Shown: positions 1-25,507, counted from the stretch's first letter. The stretch is DNA of 64,000 nucleotides from Acidobacteriota bacterium (GCA_017883185.1 JADGOB010000006.1:2283-66282), one strand, 5' to 3'. The notes: a model not told the origin generated them from the letters alone. Numbers and translations are program-made.

Positions 1-1668
1 GACCGCGCCGGCCTCGACGAACGGGCTGAGGTTGTTCGGAAGTTCGACGACGAGTGCGGGCACGTCCAGCGGCATCGCCTCGATGGCGGCCGTCGAGTTG
101 ACGGTCACGAGCGCGCTCGACGCGGCCACGAGCCGCGCCAGATCCGCCGAGGCGGGCGCGATCGTCACGTTGGTCGCGCCACTGGCCGCCCGTTCGTACG
201 GAGCCGCGGTTTCGGCAGGATGGCACTTCACCACCAACCGCACGTCCGGCATTCCCGCGACCGCTTCGATCAACGCCTCGAAGGCCCCGGCCATCTGCGA
301 GTACTTCGTGGCCACGACCACCAGATGCTGGTCCGTCCTGGCACCGACCGACGCCCGCAACGCCGCACGCGCGTCGTCGTCCATGTGGCGCGCCGATTCG
401 ACGAAGGCATCGAGCTTTGGGCTGCCGGCCACGGCGATCGCTTCGTCCGGAAAACGGCCCGCGTCGATCAGGTGACGCGCGGCGAACTGATCGTAGACGA
501 GCGTCAGGTCTGGCCGTGGAAAACCGAGGTCGGCCGGGTTGCGCGGGGAGGGCTGCATCTCGTCCGCCTCGTGCAGGTAGTTCAGCCAGTGCCGGTAAAT
601 GAAGCCGTGCTGCAGCCCGGCGACCGGGATCCCGCGGCGTCGGGCCTCGAGAACGAGCGCGCGCCCGGAACCGCCCGCCTCGGCGTAGGTGATGGCCACG
701 CGAGGTTTCAGCGCGTCGAGCGCTGCGCCGATCTCGTCCATCGTTCGCGCGGACCAGGGAAACTGCAGGTGCGAGATGCCGGTGAACTCGTTGCGCATGA
801 GCGGCCACGCGTCACACCCGCGGAACACGCAGGCGGTGCGGAGGGCGTCGCTGCCGACCAACGCCTGCCTGGTCGCGTTCCGCCCGGCCCAGACGGCGGT
901 GGACGGCGCGAGCGCGCGCCCCGAGGCGTAGCTGCCGACCGGAGCGAACGGGAGCGTGTCGGCCGTCTGGTGCACGATCTCCGCCAGCCGTTGTTTCCAG
1001 GTGCGAGAGCGGAAGTTCGTTTTCGGGCCAAGGCCGACCAGCGTCAGTTGGTGGTCGCCAACTCGCTTCGACACCTCGCGCAGCACCGGGCCGATGTACG
1101 ACTCGTCGCCGGTCGCCTGGCGCCAGAATGCGGAGTGCACGAAGGCCACGACCGTGACCGCGCCCCGTGTTCCTGGAGATCGTCGGCCAGGCCTGTATCG
1201 CTCCGCGACCGCGCTCGCCGTGTACAGCAGGCCGCGCCAGAGAGGCTCCGCGCGCTGGCGCCATGGAACGCGGGCGGGCGCCGGAGAGCCGCGCCAGGAG
1301 AGATGTCGCCCTTCGGCGAACTGGCGCGCGAGGTGGGTCAGCAGGACGTCTCCCTCCGCCACGCCCAGCGCGAGCGGTCGTTCGCGGGCGAGCAACGTCT
1401 CGAGGGCGTACAGCGTCCGGAGGATGGCGACGACCACGCGGCGCTTGTGGAGGTACAGCTCGGCAAACCACCAGAGGGAATCGCCGCGGAACAAGAACCG
1501 ATCGCGCAACGGGACGCCGTCCACCGGCAGGCCGCGAAGCGATTTGATCCAGGCGTTCGCGTCACTCTCCGCGCGCTCGGCCGCCTCGGCATCCAGGTAG
1601 GTGGTCAGCGATACGCGGCGCTCACCGTCGCCGGTATTCACGATGAGGATCTGTTTCTGGTCAGCCAT
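1..1668 (-). CDS. putative GT-B-type glycosyltransferase / capsule-synthesis-like protein; C-terminus runs off the window start
   Basis: Absent from the ORF track because its stop lies beyond position 1. Manual reverse translation from the ATG (1668-1666) gives an open 556-codon frame (MADQKQILIVNTGDGERRVSL...RLVVKCHPAE...LVTVNSTAAIEAMPLDVPALVV). The KxHP ... NST..IEA pattern resembles Capsule_synth (KpsC/KpsS-like) proteins. The start overlaps the GT9 stop by 31 nt. Confidence 0.55.
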   Translation of the reverse strand, partial: MADQKQILIVNTGDGERRVSLTTYLDAEAAERAESDANAWIKSLRGLPVDGVPLRDRFLFRGDSLWWFAELYLHKRRVVVAILRTLYALETLLARERPLALGVAEGDVLLTHLARQFAEGRHLSWRGSPAPARVPWRQRAEPLWRGLLYTASAVAERYRPGRRSPGTRGAVTVVAFVHSAFWRQATGDESYIGPVLREVSKRVGDHQLTLVGLGPKTNFRSRTWKQRLAEIVHQTADTLPFAPVGSYASGRALAPSTAVWAGRNATRQALVGSDALRTACVFRGCDAWPLMRNEFTGISHLQFPWSARTMDEIGAALDALKPRVAITYAEAGGSGRALVLEARRRGIPVAGLQHGFIYRHWLNYLHEADEMQPSPRNPADLGFPRPDLTLVYDQFAARHLIDAGRFPDEAIAVAGSPKLDAFVESARHMDDDARAALRASVGARTDQHLVVVATKYSQMAGAFEALIEAVAGMPDVRLVVKCHPAETAAPYERAASGATNVTIAPASADLARLVAASSALVTVNSTAAIEAMPLDVPALVVELPNNLSPFVEAGAV

Positions 1669-2864
1669 GTGTCCCCACTCAAGACCTCGGAGGCTGCATC
1701 GTACACCGCGTCGGCGCCGATCGCCCCGAGGCAATCGGGGACGTGACCGCGGCACCGCTGGGGTGGCCGACGAATCCGGTTGCACGGGCTGCAGGGCAAC
1801 TGGACCCGGACGACGCGGGCCGACCCGGAGACCGGGCCCCACCGCGCGGGATCGGAAGGCCCGAAGACTGCGACAAGGGGAACGTCCAGGGCGGCCGCGA
1901 GGTGCATCGGCCCCGTGTCGCCCGTCAGCAGCAGGTCCGCCTCCTCGAGGACGGCGGCCAGGGTGGCCAGGTCCACCCGCCCGGCGAGGTCGAGACATTC
2001 GACCTCGCGTCGCAGGCCGGACTTCATCTGGTCCACCAGGGGACGATCCTCCGCGCTGCCAGATAGGACGATGGACGCGCCGTGCGACGCTGACAGGCGG
2101 TTGGCGACCTCGGCGAACCGCGCGAGGTTCCACTGCTTGATCTCGCGGCCGCCGCCGGCGTGCACCACGACCACCGGTGTGCCGCCCCGGCTCCGGGCTG
2201 CGAGCAGCGCTGCGGCGCGTTCGCGCGCCTCGTCCGGCATCCGCAGTCGCCTCGCACCGGGTTCCGGCCTGTGCGATTCGAGAGAGCCAGTCGGCAAGTC
2301 GAACGCGCGCTCGACCAGGCGCAGCGAGTTCGATCGCGTGTGAATCGCGGGATTGAAAGCCACCCGGTCGGTCAGCATCGGCCCGCCGCCCGCCATGTCG
2401 AAACCCACGCGGCGAGCCGCTCCCGACAGGCCGAGGAGCGCGTGGCTGCGAACGTCTCCCTCGAAGTTGATCGCCACGTCGTAGCGCCGGCCGCGCCAGC
2501 CCTTCGCACGCTTTACCATGTCTCCGAACGAGTGGCTGGCCGCTCCTCGCGCGAGCCAGGGGGCGTTCAGCGTCTCGATGCGGTCGAGACCGGGGATGAG
2601 CCGCGCGAGCTGTTCGTTCCAGCTCCCCACCACGAGGTCGATGGTCGCGTGCGGGGACCGGGCCCGGACGGCGCCGATGGCATCGAGCGTCATCAACAGG
2701 TCGCCCACCCGCTCGAACCGCAGCAGCAGGATGGCCGGGCGGTCGTCTCCCCCGCCGGCGCCAGGGGAGCGCCGCAGAAATGGTGCGGCCGCGGCAAGGC
2801 CGATATCCGCCAGCCCGACCAGCCACCGTTCACGCCAATCCGTGAGTTGCAGATGAGAAAACAC
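1638..2864 (-). CDS. glycosyltransferase family 9 (heptosyltransferase-like)
   Basis: ORF track, 408 aa, GTG start. GT9-type motifs: LLLRFERVGDLLMT near the N-terminus and GDTGPMHLAAALDVPLVAVFGPSDP near the C-terminus. Confidence 0.8.
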   Translation of the reverse strand: MFSHLQLTDWRERWLVGLADIGLAAAAPFLRRSPGAGGGDDRPAILLLRFERVGDLLMTLDAIGAVRARSPHATIDLVVGSWNEQLARLIPGLDRIETLNAPWLARGAASHSFGDMVKRAKGWRGRRYDVAINFEGDVRSHALLGLSGAARRVGFDMAGGGPMLTDRVAFNPAIHTRSNSLRLVERAFDLPTGSLESHRPEPGARRLRMPDEARERAAALLAARSRGGTPVVVVHAGGGREIKQWNLARFAEVANRLSASHGASIVLSGSAEDRPLVDQMKSGLRREVECLDLAGRVDLATLAAVLEEADLLLTGDTGPMHLAAALDVPLVAVFGPSDPARWGPVSGSARVVRVQLPCSPCNRIRRPPQRCRGHVPDCLGAIGADAVYDAASEVLSGDTWLTRNRSSS

Positions 2865-2872
2865 CCAACCGT

Positions 2873-2935
2873 CCCCTGACCCCTGACCCCTAACTCCTAA
2901 CCCCCGATCCCCGATCCCTGCCCCCTGATCCCTAT
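2873..2935. repeat. heptanucleotide tandem array, 9 in-phase units (CCCCTGA family)
   Basis: Direct read: cccctga cccctga cccctaa ctcctaa cccccga tccccga tccctgc cccctga tccctat. It fills the junction between the upstream gene's stop (2932-2934) and the GT9 start (2864). Confidence 0.95.
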
Positions 2936-5442
2936 TTCACCGCCACCCTCTGCACCATCACGCCGAGCGTGCGGTGGTCATCGACACCCAACACAGCCTT
3001 GGGCGACCACGGCGAGGACGCGATGCGGAGGAGCGCCGGCTCTTCCCGGGCGGCAGCGGCGGCCGCGATGTCCGCGGGGATGGCGAAGGAATAGGGCTTG
3101 AACCCGCTATCGACGGTGGCTTCACCGATGAGGCGGTTGTCCAGATAGCACGTGATCGTGGCGGGACCTGCCGAAGCCGGCCGTCCGCCGTTGTCCATCC
3201 AGATCGCCAGGCTCGACGCGCGGTCGGTCAGGCCCAGGATCGTCACGTACGACGAATCGGTCGTCCAGCGAAACGAGCGACCGTTCATCCACTCCTTGGC
3301 GTTGAACCGAACGACGTACAGGTCGTCGTTCGTGCCGACGTCGATGTCGAACGGACGTGTCTCGCTCGCGGGATCGACGAACTTGTAGATGCTGAAGTCG
3401 AATTCCTTCTGGCGAGGGCCGCGTGGATAGCCGTCCCACACCGCCTCGTACTCGGGCACCTGGAACCGCTCGGTGGCCACGGGCACGACCGCGATCGCGC
3501 GCGACAGGAGGTCGGTGCCGCCGCTGCCGACGAAGTAGACGTTCTGGTAGCGGCTGCGGGCCCAGTCGAGGAACCCGCGGAACCGCTGGCGGTCGGGCCT
3601 GGGCGTGCTCAGCACGAGGACGTTGCGATTGAAGATGTAGGCCAGCGGCAAGGCGACGACGTGCAGATCGGACGACCGTCGAGATTCGACCACGACCAGG
3701 TCGCGCGGGCCGAAGTGATTCGAGAGAGCCTCGACGCGCGACCACAGCCCCTGGTACTCGACATGCCGAAAGACCGGCTGGTCCGCCCGGATGAGCAGCG
3801 CGCCGACGATCGTCACGAACACGAGCGGCGGAACCCACGCTGCCACGCGAGCCAGCGTCCCGCCCTTCGGTGTCGGCGTCTCGCCGGTCCCGTCCGTTTT
3901 CCGTGACCACACGCCGTAGAACGCGCCTGCAGCCAGCAGCAGGAACGCCGACGGCAGGATCACCGGCACGAATCGACGGGTCATCCAAAAGTGCTCGGGC
4001 ACGATCTGAATCTTGTAGAAGACGAAGAAGCCGTACACCACCGTGACGAGCAGCAGCGCCGGGTCGCGCCAGAACCGCCTCCAGGCTAGCAGGACGAAGC
4101 CGGCGACGGCGGCGATCAGACCCGCCCACGGGAAGTACCACGTGAACGTCCGGAGCGACAGCGCATCGTGCGGCGCCAGCCGACCGGCAGGAACGCGGAA
4201 GAACCAGGCGTAGATGACGGCACCGACGACGACGACGCCGAGGGCCGGAGGCGACCACGTGGAGATCACCCGCTCGAGCCGCTGGTTGCGGGAGAGGAGC
4301 AGGAGCGCGACCGCGGCCAGCACGCCGATGCCGAGAAACGTCAGGTGGATCGGACGCAGGTTCTCGAAGAACACCGCGTAGCGCCCGAAGCCTGGCCGCA
4401 TGATCGTCGAGATATAGACGCCGACGGCGACCAACGCCGCCACCATCGGGATGACAAACCAGGCGCGCGGCCACCGGCGCCGGAACAGCAGGAACAGCAC
4501 CGCGAGGCCGACGCCCGCCCACGCCAGGACGGCGTCGAAACGCAGGAACACCAGCAGTCCGAGAACCACGCCGGCCACAGGCGCAAAGAACCGGTCGTCG
4601 TCCACGTGCGACCGCGCGAAGGCGAGCAATCCTGCGAACAACAGCGCCTGCAGTCCGATCTCCGAGTTTGGATACCGGCCGAACCAGAGTTCGACGACGC
4701 AGAGCGCCAAAAGTGCCGAGGCGCAGAACGCCGGGATCCGCCCGAGCAGGCGGGCGCCCGCAAAATAGACGCCGAGCAACCCGAAGATGGCCCACGCGCC
4801 GATCATGCGCAGGCCGCCGCTCAGACCATCGAGCCCGTAACCGATCGCGACCCACGCCGGGTAGAGGTGCGGGAACTGGGCGACCACCGTGCCCTTGAGC
4901 GGATCGACCAGGAAGAAACCCATGAAGCGGAGGCTGTAGTACCAGCGATCGTGATACGGCGGGAAGAACAGGTCGCGGTGGACGGGCTGAACGGCTGCGA
5001 CCAGCGAGTCGCGGATCACCAGTGAGCCGCGCTGCGCGAGCGCGATCCCCTCGTTGATGTAGACGCCGGGGTCCCTGCCGCCGATGACGAATTCGGCGAC
5101 CGGGAAGAACAGGGCCATGCCGAGCGCGACGAGCGCAACCGGGAAAAGAGCCGTGACCCCGGGCCGTTGCGCCGTTCCGCGGTAGAGCAGGTGGCCGCGC
5201 CAGGCAGCGAGGGCCGCAGCCGAAAGCAATCCGTTGGCGATCAGCAGTCGCGGGAAGGTATACCAGGAGGCCGCCGCCAGCGCGAGCACGACGATCGACG
5301 ACCAGGCGGCGCTGATGACGACCGCCCAGAAGACGCGCTCCTCGGCGGCCAGCTGTGCCCGGCGGTCGCGCTCGGCGACAGGTGCGCGGAACAGCAGCGC
5401 GCCCGGCACGAACGCGATCAGCAGAAGCTCAGGAAGCCACAT
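2932..5442 (-). CDS. GT-C fold membrane glycosyltransferase (ArnT / PMT_2-like) with a large C-terminal soluble domain
   Basis: ORF track 2932..5562, trimmed to ATG 5442 (MWLPELLLIAFVPGALLF...); the upstream extension is Arg-rich and overlaps the DegT gene. About 560 aa of multiple hydrophobic helices are followed by about 270 aa of soluble domain. It sits in an operon with polyprenyl-P GT2 and sugar-modifying enzymes. Confidence 0.7.
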   Translation of the reverse strand: MWLPELLLIAFVPGALLFRAPVAERDRRAQLAAEERVFWAVVISAAWSSIVVLALAAASWYTFPRLLIANGLLSAAALAAWRGHLLYRGTAQRPGVTALFPVALVALGMALFFPVAEFVIGGRDPGVYINEGIALAQRGSLVIRDSLVAAVQPVHRDLFFPPYHDRWYYSLRFMGFFLVDPLKGTVVAQFPHLYPAWVAIGYGLDGLSGGLRMIGAWAIFGLLGVYFAGARLLGRIPAFCASALLALCVVELWFGRYPNSEIGLQALLFAGLLAFARSHVDDDRFFAPVAGVVLGLLVFLRFDAVLAWAGVGLAVLFLLFRRRWPRAWFVIPMVAALVAVGVYISTIMRPGFGRYAVFFENLRPIHLTFLGIGVLAAVALLLLSRNQRLERVISTWSPPALGVVVVGAVIYAWFFRVPAGRLAPHDALSLRTFTWYFPWAGLIAAVAGFVLLAWRRFWRDPALLLVTVVYGFFVFYKIQIVPEHFWMTRRFVPVILPSAFLLLAAGAFYGVWSRKTDGTGETPTPKGGTLARVAAWVPPLVFVTIVGALLIRADQPVFRHVEYQGLWSRVEALSNHFGPRDLVVVESRRSSDLHVVALPLAYIFNRNVLVLSTPRPDRQRFRGFLDWARSRYQNVYFVGSGGTDLLSRAIAVVPVATERFQVPEYEAVWDGYPRGPRQKEFDFSIYKFVDPASETRPFDIDVGTNDDLYVVRFNAKEWMNGRSFRWTTDSSYVTILGLTDRASSLAIWMDNGGRPASAGPATITCYLDNRLIGEATVDSGFKPYSFAIPADIAAAAAAREEPALLRIASSPWSPKAVLGVDDHRTLGVMVQRVAVK

Positions 5443-6520
5443 GAATCGCCCTTGCCACCTCGACCGCGTGCGTCTCCGGCATCGAGGGATACAGGGGCAG
5501 CGAGAAGATCTCCGCGCACACCTGGTCCGCGACGGGGCAGGCCGCGGGCGACTCGGAGGCAAGCGCAGGCTGGCGCGGGATCGGAACCGGGTAGTGGATC
5601 AGCGTCTCGATGCCGGCCTCATCGAGCTTCGCCCGAAGCGCCTCGCGCGCCGACGAGCGGACCGGGAACAGGTGGTAGACGTGGCCGGGATCCAGCTCCG
5701 GCGGGACGACGACGCCCGAGCCGATGAGCTCGCGCCGGTACACCGCCGCCAACGTCCGACGCTGTTCTGTCCACCGCGGCAGGAATTCGAGTCGCGCCAA
5801 CAGGATGGCCGCCTGGATCTCGTCGAGGCGGCTGTTGATGCCTGGCTCGCCGTGGTGGTAGCGGTCCGTTTGACCGCCGTTGCGAAGCCGCTTCAGCTTC
5901 GCCGCCAACTCCGCGTCGTTGGTGGTGATGGCCCCGCCGTCGCCAAGCGCGCCGAGGTTCTTCGTGGGGTAGAAGCTGTACGCCGCAGCCACGCTGAACG
6001 ACCCGACCGGTCGGCCGCGGAAGGTCGCCAGGTGCGCCTGGCAGCAGTCTTCGATCATCGCCAGGTCGTGGCGCGTGGCCATCGCGGCGAGTTCGTCCAT
6101 CGCGGCCGGCTGGCCGTAGAGGTGCACGGGAATGATCGCCGCCGTGTCGGGACCGATCGCCGCCTCGACGGCTGCCGGATCCAGCGTGAGGCGCTGCGGG
6201 TCGAGATCAACGAAGACCGGCCTGGCCCCGACGATCATCACGGCCAGCGCGGTATAGGCCGCCGACAGCGGCGTGGTGATGACCTCGTCGCCGCGGCCGA
6301 TGCCGAGCGCCTTCAGAATCAGCACCAGCGCGTCCGTGCCCGTGCCGACGCCGATGCCGAACTGCGCGCCCGACGCGTGAGCGAAGGCCCGCTCGAAGCT
6401 CTCCACCTCGGGGCCGAGCACGAACCAGCCTCGATCGACCACGCGGCGGATGGCCGCATCCACCGCCGGGCCGTCCTCGCCCGGCTTCAGGCTCATGAAC
6501 GGAATGCGCGTCGCGGTCAT
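5429..6520 (-). CDS. DegT/DnrJ/EryC1/StrS-family PLP-dependent sugar aminotransferase
   Basis: ORF track, 363 aa. Family-typical FVLGPEVESFE and the PLP-lysine region SFYPTKNLGALGDGG. ATGA overlap with the upstream SDR gene. Confidence 0.9.
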   Translation of the reverse strand: MTATRIPFMSLKPGEDGPAVDAAIRRVVDRGWFVLGPEVESFERAFAHASGAQFGIGVGTGTDALVLILKALGIGRGDEVITTPLSAAYTALAVMIVGARPVFVDLDPQRLTLDPAAVEAAIGPDTAAIIPVHLYGQPAAMDELAAMATRHDLAMIEDCCQAHLATFRGRPVGSFSVAAAYSFYPTKNLGALGDGGAITTNDAELAAKLKRLRNGGQTDRYHHGEPGINSRLDEIQAAILLARLEFLPRWTEQRRTLAAVYRRELIGSGVVVPPELDPGHVYHLFPVRSSAREALRAKLDEAGIETLIHYPVPIPRQPALASESPAACPVADQVCAEIFSLPLYPSMPETHAVEVARAIHVAS

Positions 6521-7548
6521 AGGATGCCGGCCAGGTCCTCGGGAACGGGGTTGAGATATCGGGCCAGGTGCTCGCGGTAGAACGCGATGGTCCGCTCGAA
6601 CCCTTCCCGGAGCGAGACCTTCGGTTCCCAGCCCACGGCCGCATTGAACTTGCTGGAATCGGCGTAGAAGTTGCCGATGTCAATCGCTTTCTTCTCGGCG
6701 GGCCACTCGACGAACGTCACCCGCCCGGCGCCCGCCAGGTCGAGCAGCAGGGCGACGAGTTCCCGGTGGCTGATCGGCGACTGGCCGCCCACGTTGAACG
6801 CCTCTCCGTTGCACGCGTCCGACGCGCCCGCTCTCAGGAAGGCGTCGGCCGCATCATCGACGTAGACGAAGTCGCGAAGCTGCGAGCCATCGCCGTAGAT
6901 CTGGATCTCGCCGCCCTCGACCGCCGTGCGGATGAACCAGCCGATGAATCCCTGTCGGTTGTGCTTGACGAGCTGCCGCGGGCCGTAGACGTTGGTGAGT
7001 CGCAGCGAGCAGGCGCGGATGCCGAAGACGTGGTTGTACAGCAGGTGGTAGTTCTCCCCCGCCGCCTTGTTGATGCCGTTGACATCCGTTGGGCTCACCA
7101 GGTGCCGCTCGGTGACCGGCAGGAAATCGGGCTTCCCGTACACCTGGCGCGTGCCCGCGAACACCACCCGCACGTCCGGGTTGTGCCGACGGCACGCCTC
7201 GAGAATCGACAACTGGCTGCGGCAGTTGATCTCGAGGTCCGTGTACGGATCCCGCATGCTGTCGATGTGGCTCACCTGCCCGGCGAGGTTGAAGATGACC
7301 GCCCGGTTCCGCACCAGGTAGTTCATCGTGCTCTCCTGGCGGATGTCCGCGACGTTCACCCTCACGCGGTCTTCGATCCCCTGGATGTTGAAGAAGTTGC
7401 CCCCGTAGTCCGGGATCATCGAGTCCACGAGCAGGACGTCGGCGCCCAGCTCCACCAGCTGGCGCGCGAGGTTGCTGCCAATGAAGCCCAGACCGCCGGT
7501 GATCATCACCTTGCGGTGGCGGTAGAAGGATCGATAGTCTGCGGTCAC
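6517..7548 (-). CDS. extended SDR, NAD-dependent epimerase/dehydratase family (atypical active site)
   Basis: ORF track, 343 aa. Rossmann motif ITGGLGFIGSNL. At the position expected for YxxxK the sequence reads NGINK (nt 7066-7080). GTGA overlap with the upstream GT2. Confidence 0.85.
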   Translation of the reverse strand: MTADYRSFYRHRKVMITGGLGFIGSNLARQLVELGADVLLVDSMIPDYGGNFFNIQGIEDRVRVNVADIRQESTMNYLVRNRAVIFNLAGQVSHIDSMRDPYTDLEINCRSQLSILEACRRHNPDVRVVFAGTRQVYGKPDFLPVTERHLVSPTDVNGINKAAGENYHLLYNHVFGIRACSLRLTNVYGPRQLVKHNRQGFIGWFIRTAVEGGEIQIYGDGSQLRDFVYVDDAADAFLRAGASDACNGEAFNVGGQSPISHRELVALLLDLAGAGRVTFVEWPAEKKAIDIGNFYADSSKFNAAVGWEPKVSLREGFERTIAFYREHLARYLNPVPEDLAGIL

Positions 7549-8276
7549 GGTCGTCGCCTGTGCAGCACCAGTTCACGCCAGAGTTTGAAGACGTCGGCCG
7601 CCGTGCGCACCAACCGGCCGAAGTTGAAGAACTGCGATTTGCCGTACGCCCGGTGGTAGTGGTGCACCGGGACTTCCACGATCGAGAAGCCCGCGTCCGT
7701 GATCTTCTTCATCATCTCGAGGCAGATCACGCCGCTCGACTTCTCCAGCGTCACCCGGTCGAACATGCGGCGGCGCATCAGCCTGAAATCGCAGTCCACG
7801 TCGCGCACCGTGAGGCCGAACAGCAATTTCACGGTGTGGTGGTAGAGGCGGCCAATGATGATGCGGTGCAGCGGGTCCGATCGGCTGATCTTGTAGCCGT
7901 TCACCAAGTCAACCGATTCCGACATCTTCTCCCACAACCGCGCCATCTCGCGCGGGTCGTACTGCGCGTCGCCATCCGTGTAGAAAATCCAGTCCTTGGT
8001 CGCCGACGCGAAGCCCGTGCGTAGCGCGCCGCCGTAGCCCCGGTTCTTCTCGTGATGGATGGCGCGGACCTGCGGGTAGATTCGCGACAACTCGTCGATG
8101 ATCTCGGCCGTCGCGTCGGTGCTCCCGTCGTTGATGACCAGGACCTCGAAATCGGGCGTCAGTCGGCTCGCCGTCTGAACGGCCGCGATCACCAAGCTGG
8201 CAATGGTGCCGCTGTCGTTGTAGGCGGGGAAGAACACCGTCAGTCCGACTGGCCGCTGGTCGAGTGAAGATGACAT
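7545..8276 (-). CDS. GT2 glycosyltransferase, polyprenyl-phosphate sugar synthase type (ArnC/DPM1-like, soluble)
   Basis: ORF track, 243 aa. FFPAYNDSGTI ... VINDGSTDAT ... YTDGDAQYDP, typical of GT2 family A-fold polyisoprenyl-phosphate glycosyltransferases. Confidence 0.8.
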   Translation of the reverse strand: MSSSLDQRPVGLTVFFPAYNDSGTIASLVIAAVQTASRLTPDFEVLVINDGSTDATAEIIDELSRIYPQVRAIHHEKNRGYGGALRTGFASATKDWIFYTDGDAQYDPREMARLWEKMSESVDLVNGYKISRSDPLHRIIIGRLYHHTVKLLFGLTVRDVDCDFRLMRRRMFDRVTLEKSSGVICLEMMKKITDAGFSIVEVPVHHYHRAYGKSQFFNFGRLVRTAADVFKLWRELVLHRRRP

Positions 8277-8307
8277 CGTCTGAAAGCGCTAAACCATAGC
8301 ACGAGCG

Positions 8308-9600
8308 TCACTTGGAGGGCAAGCCGGCCGCGATGGCGTTTCGCGCGTCGGGGCCTTTTCTCGCGTTCCGGTACGCCCGTTCGAACGCTTCCGCCACGCG
8401 AGTCCAGCTGTGCTCCCGGAGCACATCTTCGCGCGCCCGCGCCCCCAGGCGCGCGCGCGTGTCCGGCGAACGGAGCAGCCGATCGATCGTCCCGGCCAGC
8501 CCGTCCACGTCGCGCTCGGCCACGAGCGCCGCGTTCACGTCGTCGTGCGCGACGGCCGCAATTCCGCCGGCCGTTGTCGCCACCAGCGCCGTGCCCGACG
8601 CGAGCGCCTCCATCACGACGTTGGGCAGCCCGTCCACGTTCCCGGAATCGTCTCGGATCGAGGGGACGACCGCGAGGTCGGCCGCGGCAAGGTAGTCGGC
8701 CACTTCTCCCTGCGCCAGGACACCCGGGAAGAACAGGCGGTCGGCCACCCCTTGGCCGGCGCCGCGGGCGCGCAGTTCACCGTCGAGATCACCGTCGCCC
8801 CCGATCGCGAGACGCAGGCCAGGCCACCGGGGGGCCAGGCGGGCGACGGCGTCGATCAGATACTCGAACCCCTTCTTCCGGACGAAGCGCCCGGCCGTGA
8901 AGAGCAGGGGATCGTCTTCGCGTAAGCCGAGTGGCCCTCGGACCCGCGCTCGTGCCTCGGCGTCAGGACGAAAGCGATCGGCGTCCACGCCGTACGGAAC
9001 TGTTTCAGAGCGCTCGGCCGTCGCGCCAAGGGCAATCGCGCGCGACCGGAGATCCTCGCTGCAAGCGGTCATCCAGCCGGCGTGCTGAAATACCGCGCGC
9101 GCGACGCGCTTGGCGACCGGGTTCCGTTCCGCGAGGTAGACGTCGGACCCATGGAGGCTCACCACCATCGGGAGCCGGGGACACGCCGCGGCGGCGATGG
9201 CGCCGCCCGGGATCACCCAGTGGGCGTGGATGACGGTGGCGCCGAACACGCGGGCGATGTTCCGCGCCTTCAGCCAGCCGGCGGCGAGCGCGAGGGGAGC
9301 CACCGCGTAGGCGGACAGCCGAAGACTCACGTCGGCCCGCAGCGCTCCGGCGTACCCGAAAACACAGAGGCTGCGAGCGGGCGCGTACCGGAACGGATGG
9401 AAGCGCACCCCGTCCTCGACGTGCTCGCGCGCGAGTCGCGGGTGCCACGGGATCACCATGTGCACCTCGTGACCGCGTGCGGCCACGCCGCGCGCGATCG
9501 GCTCCATGAAGGTGCCGATCGTGTCACCCGGAAACCGCGGATAGGAGGTGGCCACCATGACCACGACCTCCCGCCCCTGTGCCTTCGACCGTTCGTCCAC
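8308..9600 (-). CDS. GT4 (GT-B, Glycos_transf_1) glycosyltransferase
   Basis: ORF track, 430 aa (GTG start; the internal ATG giving MVATSYPRF is an alternative). C-terminal EX7E-type region GLPNVVMEALASGTALVAT. Confidence 0.8.
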   Translation of the reverse strand: MDERSKAQGREVVVMVATSYPRFPGDTIGTFMEPIARGVAARGHEVHMVIPWHPRLAREHVEDGVRFHPFRYAPARSLCVFGYAGALRADVSLRLSAYAVAPLALAAGWLKARNIARVFGATVIHAHWVIPGGAIAAAACPRLPMVVSLHGSDVYLAERNPVAKRVARAVFQHAGWMTACSEDLRSRAIALGATAERSETVPYGVDADRFRPDAEARARVRGPLGLREDDPLLFTAGRFVRKKGFEYLIDAVARLAPRWPGLRLAIGGDGDLDGELRARGAGQGVADRLFFPGVLAQGEVADYLAAADLAVVPSIRDDSGNVDGLPNVVMEALASGTALVATTAGGIAAVAHDDVNAALVAERDVDGLAGTIDRLLRSPDTRARLGARAREDVLREHSWTRVAEAFERAYRNARKGPDARNAIAAGLPSK

Positions 9601-9604
9601 GATG

Positions 9605-10324
9605 CTATCGCCCCAGGAGTTTCCGCAGGCGCAGGCGCCACGGCATGATCACCGACTCGGCGAGCACGCTGCTCGACAGCTTGGAGGCGCCCATCCGGCG
9701 CTCGACGAAGACGATGGGGACCTCACCGATTCGACACTGCTGCCGCGCGGCTTCGAACAGCATCTCCACCATGAACGAGTATCCATCCGACACGATCCGG
9801 CCGAGCGGGATGCGCCCGAGCGCCTCACGCCGCCAGCACCGGAAGCCGCCGGTGCAGTCGCGAACGGCCAGGCCGGTCACGGCGCGGATGTAGCGGTTGG
9901 CGAACGTGCTCAGGATGAGTCGGTGGAGCGGCCAGTTCACCACGCTGATCCCGTTCAGGTAGCGGGAACCGACGACCACTTCGTGATCCTCCGCCGCCGC
10001 GATCAGCGACGGCAGGTATTTCGGATCGTGCGAAAAGTCCGCATCCATCTGGCAGATGAGGTCGACGTCCCGCTCGAGCGCGAGGCCGAATCCCTCCACG
10101 TAGGACCTGCCGAGGCCGCGCTTGCCCACTCGGTGCACCACGTCCACGCGACCGGGAAACTCCCGGGCGAGATCGTCGGCCACCTCCCCGGTGCCGTCGG
10201 GAGACTGGTCGTCCACGATCATGACCGCGCACCCTTCGTGCTCCAGGATCTGCCGCACGAGCGGTCCCAGGTTCTCGCGTTCGTTGTAAGTCGGGATCAC
10301 GACCAGGCTGCGTGGCGTTCTCAT
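9605..10324 (-). CDS. polyprenol-monophosphomannose synthase-like GT2 (Ppm1/DPM1-like)
   Basis: C-terminal 239 aa of track ORF 9605..11416, starting MRTPRSLVVIPTYNERENL...VDDQSPDGT...MDADFSHDP. The longer ORF is an Arg-rich extension overlapping the upstream gene. ATGA overlap with that gene's stop. Confidence 0.85.
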   Translation of the reverse strand: MRTPRSLVVIPTYNERENLGPLVRQILEHEGCAVMIVDDQSPDGTGEVADDLAREFPGRVDVVHRVGKRGLGRSYVEGFGLALERDVDLICQMDADFSHDPKYLPSLIAAAEDHEVVVGSRYLNGISVVNWPLHRLILSTFANRYIRAVTGLAVRDCTGGFRCWRREALGRIPLGRIVSDGYSFMVEMLFEAARQQCRIGEVPIVFVERRMGASKLSSSVLAESVIMPWRLRLRKLLGR

Positions 10325-11685
10325 CGTCGTCCTGCGCTCCCCTCTCGATCGGTCAGCATCGCCGGCGCGCAGGCGGCCGCGTACACGATCAGCACGGGGT
10401 CGATCACCGGGATCCGAAAGCGTTCCTGGGGAAAGAACACGAGACACACCATCACGGAGGCGGCGGCCAGCAACCAGAGCGCCACGGGGGGCGTTGTGCA
10501 GCCTCGCGCCCGCCACGCGCCGACGACGGCGAATGGCAGCACGAGCAGGTACGACGCGACCGAGGCGACGACGAACCGCGTGGAGTGCAGCGTGTACGAC
10601 GGCCCGACAGGGACCATGGTGTAGAAGGCCTTTCGCGCGAGCAGGTCGATCCACCGGACCGGGTCGCTGCGAATGTCGTCGAGCGCAGCCCTGTAGAAGA
10701 TTCCCTCGAGAGCCTCCGGCGTGGCGTTGCCGGCCGCGCGTTCGATTTCGAGGGCCGCGCGCTTCATCTCGAGGTTCGCCGCAAGGTCGCCTTCGCCACG
10801 CGCCAGCCGGTTGTTGCCCGTCCAGAATGTCACGCCGCCTTCCGAGGCGACCAGCACGAACCGGCCGTAGACCGCGTGGTTCCTGGCGGTCCAGGGAAAG
10901 ACGACGAGCATCGCGCCGGCGAGCACCGCCGCGAGCCACCATCCGCGGCGGCGAACGAGCCCCCAGGCCGCGACGAGCGCCAGGAACAACAGGATGGCCG
11001 GGCGCGCCAGCGCGGCGAGGCCGGTCAGCAGCCCGCCGGCCAGCGCAAGCCCGTACGACCGAACGGCGGTCGTCGGCGTCATCGCGCGGTCGATCACGAG
11101 CGCGGCCAGCAAGGCGAGCACCGCGTAGAGACTCTCGCTCAGCGCGTAGCTGCCGATCCAGACCAGCGGGGGGTAAACCGCCGCCAGGAACGCGGCCGCG
11201 ACCCCGGCGACGGCCGGGTGACGGCCTGCCAACTGCCGGCCGGCGACCGCCGCAGCACCTGGCCCCGCGACTCGCGTCGCCCACCACCCGACGAGCCAGA
11301 TGAGGGCGCAGCCGAGCAGCGCCTGCACGACCTTCACCTCGGTCGGCACCGACGCGGGCAGGCGATCCCCGCGAATCGCGCTCCCCGGAACCGCCACGGA
11401 GATACCCGCGAGCCACAGCGGGTAGAGCGGCGCCCGCCCGACGTGCCGCCCCTCAACCCTCCCCGATTCCGGCGACGCGTACGAGAACCCGCGGCCGTGG
11501 GCCAGGTTGTGAGCCAGCAGCAGGTACTCCTGTTCATCGAGCGTGAGGGGCTTGTCCACCCAATACGCCAGGCCGAAGACCAGGCGCAGGACGAAGCCGA
11601 GGAGCACGGCCGCCGCGAGCCACCAGCCAGTGCGGTTCGAGCCCGGCGGCGCCGTCGTCGGTCCGGCTCCTGGCGCCCGCATCAT
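10321..11685 (-). CDS. GT-C fold membrane glycosyltransferase (PMT_2 / GT39-GT83-like)
   Basis: ORF track, 454 aa, polytopic hydrophobic protein (WWLAAAVLLGFVLRLVFGLAYW..., DEQEYLLLAHNLAHGRGF). It lies directly upstream of and is coupled to the Ppm1-like GT2. Confidence 0.7.
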   Translation of the reverse strand: MMRAPGAGPTTAPPGSNRTGWWLAAAVLLGFVLRLVFGLAYWVDKPLTLDEQEYLLLAHNLAHGRGFSYASPESGRVEGRHVGRAPLYPLWLAGISVAVPGSAIRGDRLPASVPTEVKVVQALLGCALIWLVGWWATRVAGPGAAAVAGRQLAGRHPAVAGVAAAFLAAVYPPLVWIGSYALSESLYAVLALLAALVIDRAMTPTTAVRSYGLALAGGLLTGLAALARPAILLFLALVAAWGLVRRRGWWLAAVLAGAMLVVFPWTARNHAVYGRFVLVASEGGVTFWTGNNRLARGEGDLAANLEMKRAALEIERAAGNATPEALEGIFYRAALDDIRSDPVRWIDLLARKAFYTMVPVGPSYTLHSTRFVVASVASYLLVLPFAVVGAWRARGCTTPPVALWLLAAASVMVCLVFFPQERFRIPVIDPVLIVYAAACAPAMLTDREGSAGRR

Positions 11686-12546
11686 CTACTCCCGTCCTTC
11701 GAAGCGGAGTGCTGCGATCTGCTCGGACACCAGTCCCATCAGGAACACGATCACGCCGAGCATGATGAGGAGCACCGAGGAGTTCGTCACGTGCGACTGC
11801 GTGGCGATGGTCCACATGGCGTAGCCGAGGCCGACCGCGAACGATGCGAGGCTGACGGGCAGGAACACGCGCAGCGGGCTGAAGATCGTGACGACCTTGA
11901 GCACGATCAGGGAGAACTTGGCGCCGTCGCGCAGCAGCCGGATCTTCGACTGGCCCACCCGCAGGCGCGCCTCGACCGGCTCGAACACCACGTTGTAGCC
12001 CGCTTTGATGAAGGCCAGGGTCGTGGTCGTCGGCGCCGAGAACCCGTTGGGCAGCAGGTGGATGAACTCGTGGAGGTGCTGCCGCCGCGCGGCGCGAAAC
12101 CCGGACGTCAGGTCGGGGATTGGCCGGCCCGTCAGGTACGAGGCGAGGCCGTTGAGCAGGTGGTTGCCGAGACGCCGGGCCACGGTGGCCTGCGTGGCGT
12201 GCGCCCGCGCGCCGACCACCAGGTCGTAGTCGCCGAGCCGCGACACGAGGCGCGTGGCGTCCGCCGGCTGGTGCTGCCCGTCGGCGTCGATGATCAGCAC
12301 GTACTCGCCGGTCGCTTCGCGGATGCCGCTCTTCACTGACGCGCCGTTGCCCTTGTTGTACGGATGGCGGACCACCCGCGCGCCGGCGGCCTGCGCCGCG
12401 GCGCTCGTGGCATCCGTCGACCCGTCGTCCACGACGAGGATCTCGTGCCACGCGGCCGATCGGCGCAGCCCCGAGACGACATCGGCGATGTCGTCGGCCT
12501 CGTTGAAGGCGGGGATCACGACGGACGTCTGTTCGGGTGACGCCAC
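11686..12546 (-). CDS. GT2 glycosyltransferase with C-terminal transmembrane helices (GtrB / bactoprenol-glycosyltransferase-like)
   Basis: C-terminal 286 aa of track ORF 11686..13308, from GTG 12546 (VASPEQTSVVIPAFNEADDI...VVDDGSTDAT...IDADGQH), with two C-terminal hydrophobic helices. The upstream part of the ORF is Arg-rich junk overlapping the next gene. Confidence 0.8.
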   Translation of the reverse strand: MASPEQTSVVIPAFNEADDIADVVSGLRRSAAWHEILVVDDGSTDATSAAAQAAGARVVRHPYNKGNGASVKSGIREATGEYVLIIDADGQHQPADATRLVSRLGDYDLVVGARAHATQATVARRLGNHLLNGLASYLTGRPIPDLTSGFRAARRQHLHEFIHLLPNGFSAPTTTTLAFIKAGYNVVFEPVEARLRVGQSKIRLLRDGAKFSLIVLKVVTIFSPLRVFLPVSLASFAVGLGYAMWTIATQSHVTNSSVLLIMLGVIVFLMGLVSEQIAALRFEGRE

Positions 12547-13541
12547 TAGCGCTCCACGTGTTCCTGCTTGCGGGCGGCCGCGGTGACCGCGCTTTCGCCG
12601 AGCGTCAGCTCGATACCTCGGACCCGGTAGAGCAGGTCTTCGATCAGTTTCCGGTTGCCGGAAATCACATCCGCGACGAGGCCGATCAACGCGACCTGGA
12701 AGCCGACGATCAGCAGCACGGCCGCGAGGATCAACGACTGCAGGTGCCCGCGGCCCGTGCCCGTCAGGTAGAAGTAGAGGAACCGGATCGACACGCCAAC
12801 GCCGCAGAGGAAGACGACGGTGCCGATCGAGGTAAAGACCTTGAGCGGCTCGTACATCGTGTAGATGCGGACGATCGTCGCGGCCGACGCCTTGATGTAG
12901 GCCCACGTGCTGCTGAACAACCGCGACTCGCGCATGCGCGGGTTCGTCGCGATCGGCACGTGCGCGATCGCCATCCGCTTCTTCCCCGCCTGGATGATCG
13001 ACTCCAGCGTGTACGAGAAGTCGGACACGATGGTGAGCCGGAGCGCCGCGTCGCGGGTGTAGGCCCTGAACCCGCTCGTCGTGTCGGGCACCCGCGTGTT
13101 CGACACCTGGCGCACCACCCAGCTTCCCAGCAACTGCAGGCGCTTCCTGGTGGCGCTCATCTGCTTGACGGCCTGGATGTTCCGGTCGCCGATGACCATG
13201 TCGGCTTCGGCCGACAGCAGCGGCTGCAGCAGCGTGCCGACGTCCTTCGCGCAGTACTGGTTGTCCCCGTCCGTGTTGACGATGAAGTCGGCGCCGAGCT
13301 TGAGGCACGCATCGATGCCGGCCATGAACGCCGCGGCCAGGCCCTTGCGACGGCGGAACCGCACGACGTGATGGACGCCGTGCGCCCTCGCGACCTCGGA
13401 CGTCCCGTCGGTCGAGCCGTCATCGACCACCAGGAACTCGACGACATCGATGCCGGGCACGTGGCGCGGCAGGTCGGCAATCGTCTCCGGGAGCGTCTTC
13501 GCCTCGTTCAGGCACGGGATCTGGATGATGAGTTTCTTCAC
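12546..13541 (-). CDS. GT2 glycosyltransferase with C-terminal transmembrane helices (GtrB-like), second copy
   Basis: C-terminal 331 aa of track ORF 12546..15020, from GTG 13541 (VKKLIIQIPCLNEAKTL...VVDDGSTDGT...NTDGDNQY), with C-terminal TM helices. GTGA overlap with the upstream GT4 stop. Confidence 0.8.
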   Translation of the reverse strand: MKKLIIQIPCLNEAKTLPETIADLPRHVPGIDVVEFLVVDDGSTDGTSEVARAHGVHHVVRFRRRKGLAAAFMAGIDACLKLGADFIVNTDGDNQYCAKDVGTLLQPLLSAEADMVIGDRNIQAVKQMSATRKRLQLLGSWVVRQVSNTRVPDTTSGFRAYTRDAALRLTIVSDFSYTLESIIQAGKKRMAIAHVPIATNPRMRESRLFSSTWAYIKASAATIVRIYTMYEPLKVFTSIGTVVFLCGVGVSIRFLYFYLTGTGRGHLQSLILAAVLLIVGFQVALIGLVADVISGNRKLIEDLLYRVRGIELTLGESAVTAAARKQEHVER

Positions 13542-14584
13542 TGTCCACCAACGAACTTCTCGATGACGCCGTCCCACGTAATCGTCTGCGCGCGCTCGCG
13601 TCCGGCAGCCCCGAGCGACGCCGCCCGCGCGCGGCTGGCGGCCAGGCCGTTCATCGCCCGCGCGATGTCGTCGGCATCCGGCGCGCAGACGTACCCGTTC
13701 ACCCCGTCCTCGACGAACTCGAGGACGCCGCCCGAATCCGAGGCGGTCACCACCGGCTTGCCGCTCAGGAACGCCTCGAGCGTCACGTACCCGTAATCCT
13801 CGTCGAACGGGGCATAGACGACGCCGAGCGCGCCCGCGTAGAGATCGACAAGGTCGTCGTCCGAACGGGCGCCGAGGAACTCCACACGGTCGCGGACCCC
13901 CGCCTCCTCCGCCACCCGTTCCACGTTCTCGCGCTGCGTGCCCTCGCCGACGACGAGCAGCCGCACGCCAGGGTCCACGTGCCGGAACGCCCGAATCGCG
14001 AGGTCCACGCGCTTGATCGACTCGAGGCGGCCCACCGACAGGATATAGTCGCCGAACGCGCCGCAGCGCAACCGATCCGCCAGCCTCGGGGGATGATAGA
14101 GCGGCTCGGCGCCGACGCCCACGTATTTCTGCAGGCGGTTGGCGACGTTCCGGGCGATCGCATAGATGCGGCGCGACTCGAGCAGCATCTCGCGATCGAG
14201 ACTGAAAATGCGCTCGCGCAACGCCACGTCGAGCTCGGTGTAATCGAAATCGCCGTACTCGGTTCCGCAGAGCTCGTACGCGGCGCGGTACTGGTGCGTG
14301 AGCCAGGTGACCTTGTTCGGGTGTCGCACGAAGTACGACGGGAACTTCGTGGTGATCACCATGTCGATCGGCCGGCCGTTGCTCTCGCTGAGGTCGAGCA
14401 GCCGCCACGCGGCCGCGTGCGTGAGGATCTCCTGCTTGGGATACCACTTGAACGGCACCGACACGATGCCGGCGGCGTACCCGCGGAGCGTCAACTGGTG
14501 CGCGAGCTGGCGGACCAGTCGCTCGGCGCCGCCTTCGACGAGCGGCACCTGCACTTCGCAGACGAGGACGGTGCGGACGGACAT
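13538..14584 (-). CDS. GT4 (GT-B) glycosyltransferase; first gene of the glycan cluster
   Basis: ORF track, 348 aa. GGAERLVRQLAHQL N-terminal motif and EDYGYVTLEAFLSGKPVV EX7E-type region. Confidence 0.8.
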   Translation of the reverse strand: MSVRTVLVCEVQVPLVEGGAERLVRQLAHQLTLRGYAAGIVSVPFKWYPKQEILTHAAAWRLLDLSESNGRPIDMVITTKFPSYFVRHPNKVTWLTHQYRAAYELCGTEYGDFDYTELDVALRERIFSLDREMLLESRRIYAIARNVANRLQKYVGVGAEPLYHPPRLADRLRCGAFGDYILSVGRLESIKRVDLAIRAFRHVDPGVRLLVVGEGTQRENVERVAEEAGVRDRVEFLGARSDDDLVDLYAGALGVVYAPFDEDYGYVTLEAFLSGKPVVTASDSGGVLEFVEDGVNGYVCAPDADDIARAMNGLAASRARAASLGAAGRERAQTITWDGVIEKFVGGQ

Positions 14585-14587
14585 AAC

Positions 14588-14619
14588 AGTTGAAGAGAAG
14601 GGCGAGGCAGGTCTCGCCC
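14588..14619 (-). terminator. candidate intrinsic terminator downstream of ychF
   Basis: Minus-strand read: GGGCGAG-ACCTGC-CTCGCCC followed by TTCTCTTCAACTGTT. The 7-bp GC stem is at 14600-14619. The T-tract is interrupted, so this is only moderate. Confidence 0.45.
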
Positions 14620-14635
14620 GCGGACAGCCATCCAG

Positions 14636-15730: not shown

Positions 15731-15894
15731 GCCAAACCTCGAATGCTATCACGCTCGCGGCAGACCCGGAACGATTGCCCGCCACACGGGCCCCCAGCCA
15801 TCGTCTTGGACGTCTGAACTTGGATAGGCCAGCGAAGCAAAAGCGAACCACCGACGTCCCCGCGCGCAGGGCAACCTCTTCCATTTCTTAGGGA

Positions 15895-15923
15895 TTGACA
15901 ACCCCCAACTCGTCCCTTACCAT
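15895..15923 (+). promoter_or_regulatory. sigma70-type promoter of the dcw cluster (Pmra-like)
   Basis: TTGACA (15895-15900), a 17-nt spacer, then TACCAT (15918-15923), about 40 nt upstream of the mraZ ATG. Confidence 0.6.
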
Positions 15924-15926
15924 CCG

Positions 15927-15951
15927 AGTGGTCCAAAGTGGAGCGAGGTGG
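15927..15951 (+). promoter_or_regulatory. three direct GTGG boxes at exact 10-nt spacing (candidate MraZ operator)
   Basis: gAGTGGt (15928), aAGTGGa (15938), aGGTGGg (15948). They lie immediately downstream of the -10 box and upstream of mraZ. Confidence 0.55.
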
Positions 15952-15961
15952 GAGAGTAAGC

Positions 15962-16429: not shown

Positions 16430-16448
16430 CGGGCGGCAAGGACGGCCA

Positions 16449-17342: not shown

Positions 17343-17370
17343 GACACGTTTTACGGGAGAGGACCGCGAC

Positions 17371-17772: not shown

Positions 17773-17780
17773 GAGCGATC

Positions 17781-21355: not shown

Positions 21356-21364
21356 CGAGCACCG

Positions 21365-25504: not shown

Positions 25505-25507
25505 CGC

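Follow-up and report, generated by a model that had tools for sequence, protein, structure and literature searches.

What does a bacterium make with a gene block that combines glycosyltransferases of several types, from a heptosyltransferase-like enzyme to multispanning membrane proteins, and shows no polymerase, exporter, or initiating enzyme? The block in question occupies the first 14,584 nt of a 64,000-nt stretch of DNA (JADGOB010000006.1:2283-66282, assembly GCA_017883185.1), referred to below as the window, which comes from the genome of an uncultured soil acidobacterium of the Vicinamibacteria (Acidobacteriota). It comprises 12 genes, numbered g1 to g12 from window position 1 (Table 1). 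The analysis favors, with somewhat better than even confidence, a vertically inherited, operon-like locus for an envelope glycoconjugate, in which a two-compartment pathway would operate and the core of lipopolysaccharide (LPS) would be the likeliest acceptor.

Since the GC content of the window is about 68%–70%, reading frames were chosen by third-position GC (GC3 frame plot), and the gene models were completed by mapping of start codons. Twelve consecutive minus-strand genes fill the region, with junctions, from g12 down to g1, of −4, −1, 0, −4, +4, +31, −4, −4, −14, +67, and −31 nt. A first-pass annotation, made from the sequence alone, had described a single-strand cluster with almost no intergenic DNA except for a heptamer array and a 31-nt gap; the same coordinates were recovered, both exceptions were seen, and the remaining junctions range from −31 to +4 nt. 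The same contig in public databases carries independent gene calls, which match the models except for two starts: g7 is called from a later ATG, which would make the gap 46 nt, and g9 from one codon later. The GTG at 9600 is favored as the g7 start because alignments with orthologues begin at residue 10 of the longer version. The g3 protein is identical to proteins on ENA and JGI contigs. The expectation that the cluster runs past position 1 was also borne out by the public gene calls, which continue with the rest of g1 (615 aa at full length, read on locus L001), d1, d2, and d3, giving at least 14–15 genes in total. Tight packing of 12 co-directional genes is usual for an operon; it is their conservation among relatives that exceeds chance.

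With a g3 profile, 80 loci at species level were collected together with their 10-kb flanks, all from Vicinamibacteria/Acidobacteriota metagenome-assembled genomes, and these were searched by tblastn with all proteins of the cluster. The order ychF-g12-g11-g10-g9-g8-g7-(g6-g5-g4)-g3-g2-g1-d1-d2 is shared, on the same strand and with 45%–90% identity, by dozens of species-level genomes. The block thus behaves in this synteny comparison as the single conserved glycan cluster that had been supposed, and not as a patchwork conserved in no relative, which had been named beforehand as the refuting outcome. Among the 60 loci with enough upstream flank, g7 was present in 59, g10 in 50, g9 in 48, g8 in 44, and g4 in 43. 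On the other side, g2 follows g3 in 61 of the 62 loci with enough downstream flank, where d2, d1, and g1 were found in 50, 49, and 48, respectively. At least 21 relatives, among those with a flank long enough to show it, have ychF upstream of g12, and a genome with 53% identity in g3 (GCA_016294925.1) has the identical order of ychF and the 12 genes, plus d1 and d2. Median junctions in relatives range from −4 to about +40 nt. A literature search covering Vicinamibacter glycosyltransferases, heptosyltransferases of Acidobacteria, DUF6716, and radical-SAM nucleotide-sugar enzymes turned up nothing about the locus.

The conserved order is modular. Genes g6-g5-g4 are present or absent as one block and occur only together with g1-d1-d2, the exception being one locus disrupted by insertion sequences. 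Genes g8 and g9 co-occur with each other and with g1-d1-d2, and one clade retains only g12-g11-g10-g7-g3-g2. The GC content at window positions 7000–8500, covering g6 and most of g5, is 0.63–0.65 versus about 0.69–0.72 in the neighboring genes, a dip in keeping with the g4-g6 cassette as the variable segment of the locus. In many relatives, genes for an AlgX/AlgJ-like SGNH protein and an MBOAT protein, a pair of the AlgI/PatA/DltB type, are inserted between g4 and g3 (L026, 7275–9943; also L011, L021, and L039). The clade with the reduced cluster carries further genes of glycosyltransferase family 4 (GT4) and methyltransferase genes alongside, as well as an unknown membrane protein, and in L087 a divergent 198-aa SIS_2 protein (5422–6018), of the size and family of the phosphoheptose isomerase GmhA, is encoded beside the reduced cluster. 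In L088, the contig of P0054 in a long-read metagenome-assembled genome, the cluster is broken by IS1595-/DDE-type transposases (5902–6876 and 14121–19768) and its genes are fragmented, so that it was uninformative as a source of linked LPS genes.

The link to LPS comes from g2. This protein matched PF01075 (Glyco_transf_9) at 137.7 bits against a cut-off of 22, which places it in family GT9, and its best PDB match was WaaF (1psw, E = 5e-21). All GT9 motifs, which we take to be those of the WaaC/WaaF structures, were found: an N-terminal GD with the catalytic Asp (RVGDLL, residues 52–57), K-x-W (IKQW, 242–245), and a C-terminal (D/N)-x-G-P-x-H-L-A-A-A (GDTGPMHLAAAL, 314–325). Two further enzymes belong to GT4. 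The product of g7 contains PF00534, PF13439, and related families, and weakly matches MshA and GlcNAc-phosphatidylglycerol synthase; that of g12 matched PF00534 at 108.7 bits and generic GT4 families in NCBIfam.

The g1 product is probably a glycosyltransferase of a DUF6716 type with a GT-B fold, as judged from its AlphaFold2 (AF2) model (pLDDT 88), for which the best Foldseek matches were UDP-GlcNAc 2-epimerases with a TM score of about 0.65. Its Pfam and NCBIfam matches, namely Epimerase_2, DUF6716, TIGR04396, and BFO_1060, were all sub-threshold. The protein encoded in the window reached 24.2 bits against PF20471 (cut-off 27), most close homologues carry a precomputed PF20471 assignment, and one is named DUF6716 by NCBI. 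An HP motif (KCHPAE) is located at residues 481–486. The protein had been called Capsule_synth-like, but the match to this family (KpsC/KpsS, PF05159) is below threshold (14.3 bits, cut-off 20, E = 0.028), and it is better described as a DUF6716-like protein that has a GT-B fold and carries an HP motif. On one ENA contig, a 767-aa protein (P0274) is called as the C-terminal part of a GT9 enzyme fused to a g1 homologue; given the 31-nt overlap of g2 and g1 here, a frameshift or gene-call artefact and a true fusion are both possible.

Two membrane proteins, g3 and g9, represent the GT-C class. About 13 transmembrane (TM) helices of g3 are followed by a periplasmic C-terminal domain of about 285 aa, with an alpha/beta part and a beta-sandwich, which is weakly similar to carbohydrate-binding modules (CBM) and BcsB in Foldseek. 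The AF2 model (pLDDT 88.7) has a GT-C fold and matched STT3/PglB/AglB, ALG9/12, Emb, ArnT, DPY19, and Pmt4 with a Foldseek probability of 1.0 and TM scores of just 0.3–0.48. In the first loop, E117 and D124 are invariant. No Pfam match was found for this copy of g3; PF13231 (PMT_2) is present in some homologues, one of which is called GT39 in an NCBI record, and a profile of the g3 family found nothing among PDB sequences. Membership in the STT3-type oligosaccharyltransferase (OST) family was ruled out since no WW/WWD/WWDYG motif is present, and the likeness is at the level of the fold only. The shorter g9 has 9–11 TM segments and an invariant D50-E51 motif in the first loop. This copy also lacks a Pfam match, while many homologues contain PF13231 and bear the JGI name "Ara4N transferase-like"; against PDB, the g9-family profile gave only a weak match to TMEM260 (E = 3e-4). 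The two proteins are not close paralogues, since hhalign relates them with a probability of only 43%. The GT-C fold of three-component glycosylation systems is therefore present twice, in g3 according to AF2 and Foldseek and in g9 according to PF13231 of its homologues and the DE motif.

Sugars for such enzymes are loaded onto carrier lipids by GT2 synthases, and four candidates, all containing PF00535, are encoded in the block. The proteins g10 and g11 have the GtrB/ArnC-like architecture of these synthases: g10 matched AglJ at 143.6 bits and PpgS at 99 bits, both under the cut-offs, and has TM segments at about 213–240 and 256–274, and g11, with two C-terminal TM segments, matched AglJ at 134 bits. 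The other two are soluble, DPM1-like versions without TM segments. The best NCBIfam match of g6, a predicted polyprenyl-phosphate amino-sugar synthase, was ArnC (85 bits against a cut-off of 529), and g8 has AglJ/ArnC/DPM-like matches.

The earlier list of enzyme types, comprising GT9, GT4, GT2, and two GT-C enzymes, was correct as far as it went; it omitted the g4 aminotransferase and the g5 short-chain dehydrogenase/reductase (SDR), which together with g6 make up an optional cassette resembling the Arn pathway. The g4 protein matched PF01041 at 364 bits, PseC at 219 bits, and ArnB at 201 bits (ArnB cut-off 631), the latter two below the equivalog cut-offs. The g5 protein matched PF01370 at 162 bits, and in PDB alignments its N157 aligns to the Tyr of YxxxK. 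The motif pattern TRQ...NGxNK (NGINK here), in which TRQ replaces TDE, TSE, or SxS, is kept in all 45 scorable orthologues; the Asn-for-Tyr replacement is therefore a trait of the subfamily and not a mutation. Pfam and NCBIfam searches of the 12 genes and the four downstream genes revealed no ArnA formyltransferase domain, ArnD, or ArnE/F.

Beyond position 1, d1 encodes an SDR with STSEVYG and YxxxK motifs, whose best PDB match was the human UDP-glucuronate decarboxylase UXS1 (E = 6e-61), with a weaker match to ArnA (E = 1e-35). It is followed by d2, a 317-aa radical-SAM/SPASM enzyme, by d3, a secreted Pro-rich protein, and on the opposite strand by d4, an SGNH/AlgX-like protein (L001, 18649–19950) with no adjoining MBOAT gene in this genome. 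The pairing of a UXS-like enzyme with a radical-SAM enzyme suggests an unusual modified pentose. The d1-d2 pair (L001, 15679–17635) is the most conserved pair of the locus, with 70%–80% identity across the class, and one relative adds a B12-binding radical-SAM enzyme (L089, 15681–19067). A nonulosonic acid (Pse/Leg) pathway was considered because of the similarity of g4 to PseC, of d1 and g5 to LegB, and of g1 to TIGR04396, BFO_1060, and the 2-epimerase fold. It was rejected, as no NeuB-type synthase, CMP-synthetase, or N-acetyltransferase was found.

Precomputed Pfam assignments of the called genes, covering window positions 1–64000 and 7 kb past position 1, contained no Wzx/Wzy, ABC/Wzm/Wzt/Kps exporter, Wzz, or phosphoglycosyl transferase (PGT). 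The lack of polymerase, export, chain-length, and initiating genes, noticed before within the window, thus holds for its whole length, and a Wzy-, ABC-, or synthase-dependent polymer from this locus was rejected because the requisite genes are not found there.

The enzymes could instead act on both sides of the membrane. In the cytoplasm, the GT4 enzymes g12 and g7, the GT9 enzyme g2, and the DUF6716 protein g1 would extend a lipid-anchored acceptor from nucleotide sugars, most likely in the lipid A–Kdo (3-deoxy-D-manno-oct-2-ulosonic acid)/inner-core region of LPS. The DPM1/GtrB/ArnC-type GT2s g6, g8, g10, and g11 would load single sugars onto polyprenyl phosphate, and once these had been flipped, g3 and g9 could pass the carrier-bound sugars, on the periplasmic face, to the glycan after its export. 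Among the donors there is probably a 4-amino sugar: a pentose or 4-keto-pentose, possibly the product of d1, would be transaminated by g4 and then placed on the carrier by g6, in an Arn-like route without the formyl cycle. In relatives, the MBOAT/SGNH pair may add periplasmic O-acylation, which would be optional like the g6-g5-g4 cassette. In such a pathway, every periplasmic step would draw on a carrier loaded with one sugar and on an acceptor already assembled, so that Wzx/Wzy, an ABC exporter, a chain-length regulator, and an initiating PGT would not be needed, which would explain their absence. The LPS core is the most likely acceptor since g2 has the heptosyltransferase signature and is the most constant partner of g3, and since one relative encodes the GmhA-like SIS_2 protein. 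The gene models, the families and folds, and the conserved and modular make-up of the locus are established by the data; the identities of the sugars, the pairing of GT2s with GT-Cs, the acceptor, and co-transcription with ychF are our inferences.

Several observations weigh against this pathway or parts of it. The scores of g2 are under the NCBIfam equivalog cut-offs for the heptosyltransferases HepIII (116 versus 170 bits), HepII (110 versus 135), and HepI (100 versus 185), and overall g2, g4, and g6 are all far under the equivalog cut-offs for WaaC/F/Q, ArnB, and ArnC, respectively. The window contains no lpx, waaA, kds, or ADP-heptose gene, and the GmhA-like neighbor occurs in only one of the examined relatives. 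No flippase of the GtrA, ArnE/F, MATE, or EamA/SMR type is present among the called genes, which account for all coding space. Four candidate carrier-lipid GT2s face two GT-Cs, and two of the four, g6 and g8, have no TM helices. Without the SDR catalytic Tyr, g5 has a less evident role in the amino-sugar route. Finally, the co-occurrence of modules is confounded by phylogeny.

Some of the evidence also fits other products. If the GT4s glycosylated a phospholipid or diacylglycerol anchor and the GT-Cs extended it outside from polyprenyl-phosphate sugars, the result would be a membrane glycolipid or lipoglycan other than LPS, like phosphatidylinositol mannosides (PIM), lipomannan (LM), or lipoarabinomannan (LAM). 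The PIM/LM route employs the GT4s PimA/PimB, Ppm1, and the GT-Cs PimE/Mpt, and it is mirrored here by two GT4s, Ppm1-like GT2s, and GT-Cs; the weak similarity of g7 to MshA and GlcNAc-phosphatidylglycerol synthase and the class-wide, core-genome occurrence of the locus next to the division/cell-wall (dcw) cluster point the same way. We nevertheless consider this product rather unlikely, because the tightest-conserved partner of g3 is a GT9 enzyme with heptosyltransferase motifs, no inositol- or lipid-anchor-specific enzyme is present, and the GT4 matches are all generic. The top position of AglJ among the matches of g10 and g11 suggests another scheme, in which these GT2s would start an oligosaccharide on polyprenyl monophosphate as in the archaeal Agl pathway, the GT4, GT9, and DUF6716 enzymes would extend it, and after flipping, g3 would hand the complete glycan over to proteins of the envelope or to some other acceptor. 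Initiation on a monophosphate would explain the missing PGT, Wzx and Wzy were likewise not found, the top Foldseek matches of g3 are the oligosaccharyltransferases STT3, PglB, and AglB, and one of its homologues bears the GT39 name. However, the AglJ scores are far under the 325-bit cut-off, and g10 and g11 also match PpgS, ArnC, and DPM families; g3 lacks WWDYG, and its TM scores to OSTs are no better than those to ALG, Emb, and ArnT; no flippase is encoded; and, to our knowledge, the substrates of GT9 enzymes are lipid A-core or proteins rather than polyprenyl-linked glycans. Such en bloc transfer is therefore unlikely. It is quite doubtful that the locus is a bacterial counterpart of Agl independent of PGT and Wzx/Wzy, with g3 as a new family of en bloc GT-Cs and with the Tyr-less SDR and the UXS-like/radical-SAM pair tailoring an unprecedented sugar of a class-specific envelope glycan.

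An exopolysaccharide or capsule locus that relies on unlinked genes for its initiating transferase, polymerase, and exporter would account for a glycosyltransferase-rich block with sugar-nucleotide-modifying genes, for the weak likeness of g1 to HP-motif transferases of capsule and teichoic acid synthesis, and for the additional GT4, methyltransferase, and membrane-protein genes beside the reduced cluster. But no export, polymerase, or initiation gene occurs in the 7 kb downstream or in the 49 kb upstream, the strict vertical conservation beside ychF is unlike the variability typical of exopolysaccharide and O-antigen loci, and GT-Cs with carrier-lipid GT2s are enzymes of decoration, not of polymerization, which leaves this explanation quite improbable. 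Nor is it easy to see the block as co-located independent glycosylation units with different targets (for example, g12-g7, g6-g4, g3-g2, and g1-d2). The g4-g6, g8-g9, g1-d1-d2, and d4-MBOAT modules are indeed gained and lost independently of the g12-g11-g10-g7-g3-g2 core, the g5-g6 segment has a GC content about 5% lower, and internal promoters might be located in the spacers of 31 and 67 nt. Yet gene order, strand, and the 4-nt overlaps are conserved class-wide across the module boundaries, and the scan showed neither a sigma-70-like promoter inside the block nor a convincing terminator, so that independent units are very improbable.

The locus represents the form that a well-known type of gene cluster takes in this lineage, and not a new kind of system. 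The first-pass annotation had stressed that its enzyme types usually belong to different pathways. This was overstated, since cytoplasmic core glycosyltransferases combined with decoration by polyprenyl-phosphate GT2s and GT-Cs are the established logic of the Arn, Rhizobium Rgt, Gtr, and teichoic acid systems; the interpretation was essentially right, and the block is less unusual than it implied. The Arn system (PmrHFIJKLM) modifies lipid A with 4-amino-4-deoxy-L-arabinose. Shared with it are the UDP-GlcA-decarboxylase-like SDR d1, the ArnB-type g4, the ArnC-like g6, and the ArnT/PMT_2-like GT-Cs g9 and g3, as is the logic of an amino sugar that is transferred from a carrier lipid on the periplasmic face. 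By contrast, the formyltransferase domain, ArnD, ArnE/F, and the TM helices of ArnC are missing, d1 is nearer to UXS than to ArnA, the cassette lies inside a larger glycosyltransferase operon, and an extra SDR without catalytic Tyr is present. The scores of g4 against ArnB (201/631 bits) and of g6 against ArnC (85/529) do not reach equivalog level, and g9 and g3 are related to ArnT at the family level of PMT_2 only, via homologues.

In Rhizobium leguminosarum, the GT-Cs RgtA-D and the GT2 RgtE carry out periplasmic galacturonosylation of the LPS core and lipid A. Several ArnT-like GT-Cs fed by an ArnC-like GT2 beside cytoplasmic core glycosyltransferases form a likeness in enzyme types; the Rhizobium core differs in having no heptose and no GT9 enzyme, and its gene organization is different. 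With the enterobacterial WaaC/WaaF/WaaQ, g2 shares PF01075, the GD, K-x-W, and GDxGPxHLAAA motifs, and WaaF as the best PDB match, but it is under every equivalog cut-off and has a 44-aa N-terminal extension, and the locus lacks WaaA, WaaL, and a gene for ADP-heptose synthesis. In the Haloferax Agl system (AglJ, AglB), AglJ is the top curated family for g10 and g11, and a start on polyprenyl monophosphate would need no PGT; however, the scores are less than half the cut-off, and g3, without WWDYG, is not an OST of the STT3/AglB type. The pairing of a polyprenyl-phosphate sugar synthase with a GT-C is shared with the three-component systems GtrA/GtrB/GtrC, CsbB-GtcA-YfhO, and Citrobacter GT136. 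In the last, a pentofuranose system with three-component carrier-lipid/GT-C logic, the GT-C has a C-terminal CBM (PMC11127046), and g3 likewise ends in a carbohydrate-binding-like domain. Differences from the three-component systems are the lack of a dedicated flippase gene and the presence of several synthases, two GT-Cs, and GT-B enzymes in one operon; in addition, the g3 family has no Pfam model or close solved relative.

The locus includes several uncharacterized families, namely the g3 GT-C, DUF6716, the Tyr-less SDR, and the UXS plus radical-SAM pair. Vicinamibacteria are abundant in soil, and almost no biochemistry of their envelope has been described. The locus is a class-wide core-genome marker, anchored by ychF and in this genome located beside the division/cell-wall cluster, and it probably defines a signature surface glycolipid of the Vicinamibacteria. 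The optional, formyl-independent Arn-like cassette bears on surface charge and resistance to antimicrobial peptides. That cassette is one testable candidate; others are the Tyr-less SDR, the conserved UXS-like/radical-SAM pair, and the new family of GT-Cs to which g3, with its carbohydrate-binding-like domain, belongs. The general principle of assembly in the cytoplasm and subsequent decoration in the periplasm from carrier lipids is well established; the locus is therefore of value for cataloguing and for the discovery of enzymes and does not add a new concept.

Table 1. Features of the glycan block and its flank (window coordinates)
Feature	Position	Strand	Description
g1	<1-1668	-	Partial, 556/615 aa; DUF6716-like, GT-B fold, HP motif (probable glycosyltransferase)
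g2	1638-2864	-	GT9 heptosyltransferase-family enzyme, 408 aa
g3-g2 spacer	2865-2931	-	67 nt, G-rich heptamer array between the g3 stop and the g2 GTG
g3	2932-5442	-	GT-C glycosyltransferase, 836 aa
g4	5429-6520	-	DegT/ArnB/PseC-type sugar 4-aminotransferase
g5	6517-7548	-	Extended SDR, NAD epimerase/dehydratase family, Asn at catalytic Tyr position
g6	7545-8276	-	Short soluble GT2, ArnC/DPM1-like
g7-g6 spacer	8277-8307	-	31 nt
g7	8308-9600	-	GT4 glycosyltransferase, 430 aa
g8	9605-10324	-	Short soluble GT2, polyprenyl-phosphate sugar synthase-like
g9	10321-11685	-	Short ArnT/PMT_2-like GT-C membrane glycosyltransferase, 454 aa
g10	11686-12546	-	GT2 with two C-terminal TM helices (GtrB/ArnC/AglJ architecture)
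g11	12546-13541	-	GT2 with two C-terminal TM helices, polyprenyl-phosphate glycosyltransferase-like
g12	13538-14584	-	GT4 glycosyltransferase, first gene in block
Weak terminator-like hairpin	14600-14619	-	Between ychF and g12
ychF	14636-15730	-	Ribosome-binding ATPase, PF06071; conserved anchor upstream of block

The block had been described as starting just past a candidate terminator of ychF with no evident promoter. It does adjoin ychF, and the scan for sigma-70-like promoters found none for the cluster and none internally; the terminator is the weaker part of this description. The hairpin (14619–14600 on the minus strand; scan match GGGCGAGACCTGCCTCGCCC followed by TTCTCTTCAA) lies 15 nt ahead of the g12 ATG, and the 51-nt spacer folds at −17.8 kcal/mol (z = −1.86) with an interrupted U tail, so that it is weak. 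Terminator-like sites in the region are no more numerous than in shuffled sequence, and an Rfam scan of positions 1–17000 found no RNA family. In relatives, the ychF-g12 spacer measures 4–195 nt and the hairpin is not conserved; hence it is not a defining element. The ychF gene is possibly co-transcribed with the block.

Of the two spacers within the block, the one between g7 and g6 is of ordinary length for the lineage, with a median of 33 nt in relatives versus 31 nt here. The g3-g2 spacer consists of about nine G-rich, GGGGTCA-like heptamers when read directly; Tandem Repeats Finder reported 8.7 copies with a period of 7 at 2873–2933. No significant fold was found for this spacer. The array is G-rich on the mRNA strand and could therefore form a G-quadruplex. 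The junction in relatives contains unrelated heptamer arrays or measures just 1–30 nt. Tandem arrays of heptamers are found repeatedly between genes in Vicinamibacteria genomes, with units that differ at the same junction: between g3 and g2 the unit is CGGTCTT in L034 and TACGGAC-like in L063, and arrays are also present in L041 and L058. In the near relative L004 (95% amino acid identity), the g3-g2 spacer is 206 nt long and repeat-rich with unrelated sequence, and in L054 and L055 a heptamer array sits in the ychF-g12 spacer. These arrays resemble the short tandemly repeated repetitive (STRR) heptamers of cyanobacteria.

Beyond ychF, on the other strand (about 17658–30734), lies the dcw cluster murE-murF-murD-ftsW-murC-ftsQ-ftsA-ftsZ. 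In the Pfam listing of called genes, murF is not separated from murD by mraY, nor ftsW from murC by murG. The dcw cluster is followed by rpoD, dnaG, mutS2, lepA, lepB, and other housekeeping genes. Just upstream of lepA, at 44110–45639 on the plus strand, a separate 498-aa glycosyltransferase of the GT2/GT21 type, similar to processive synthases, is encoded without linkage to the cluster.

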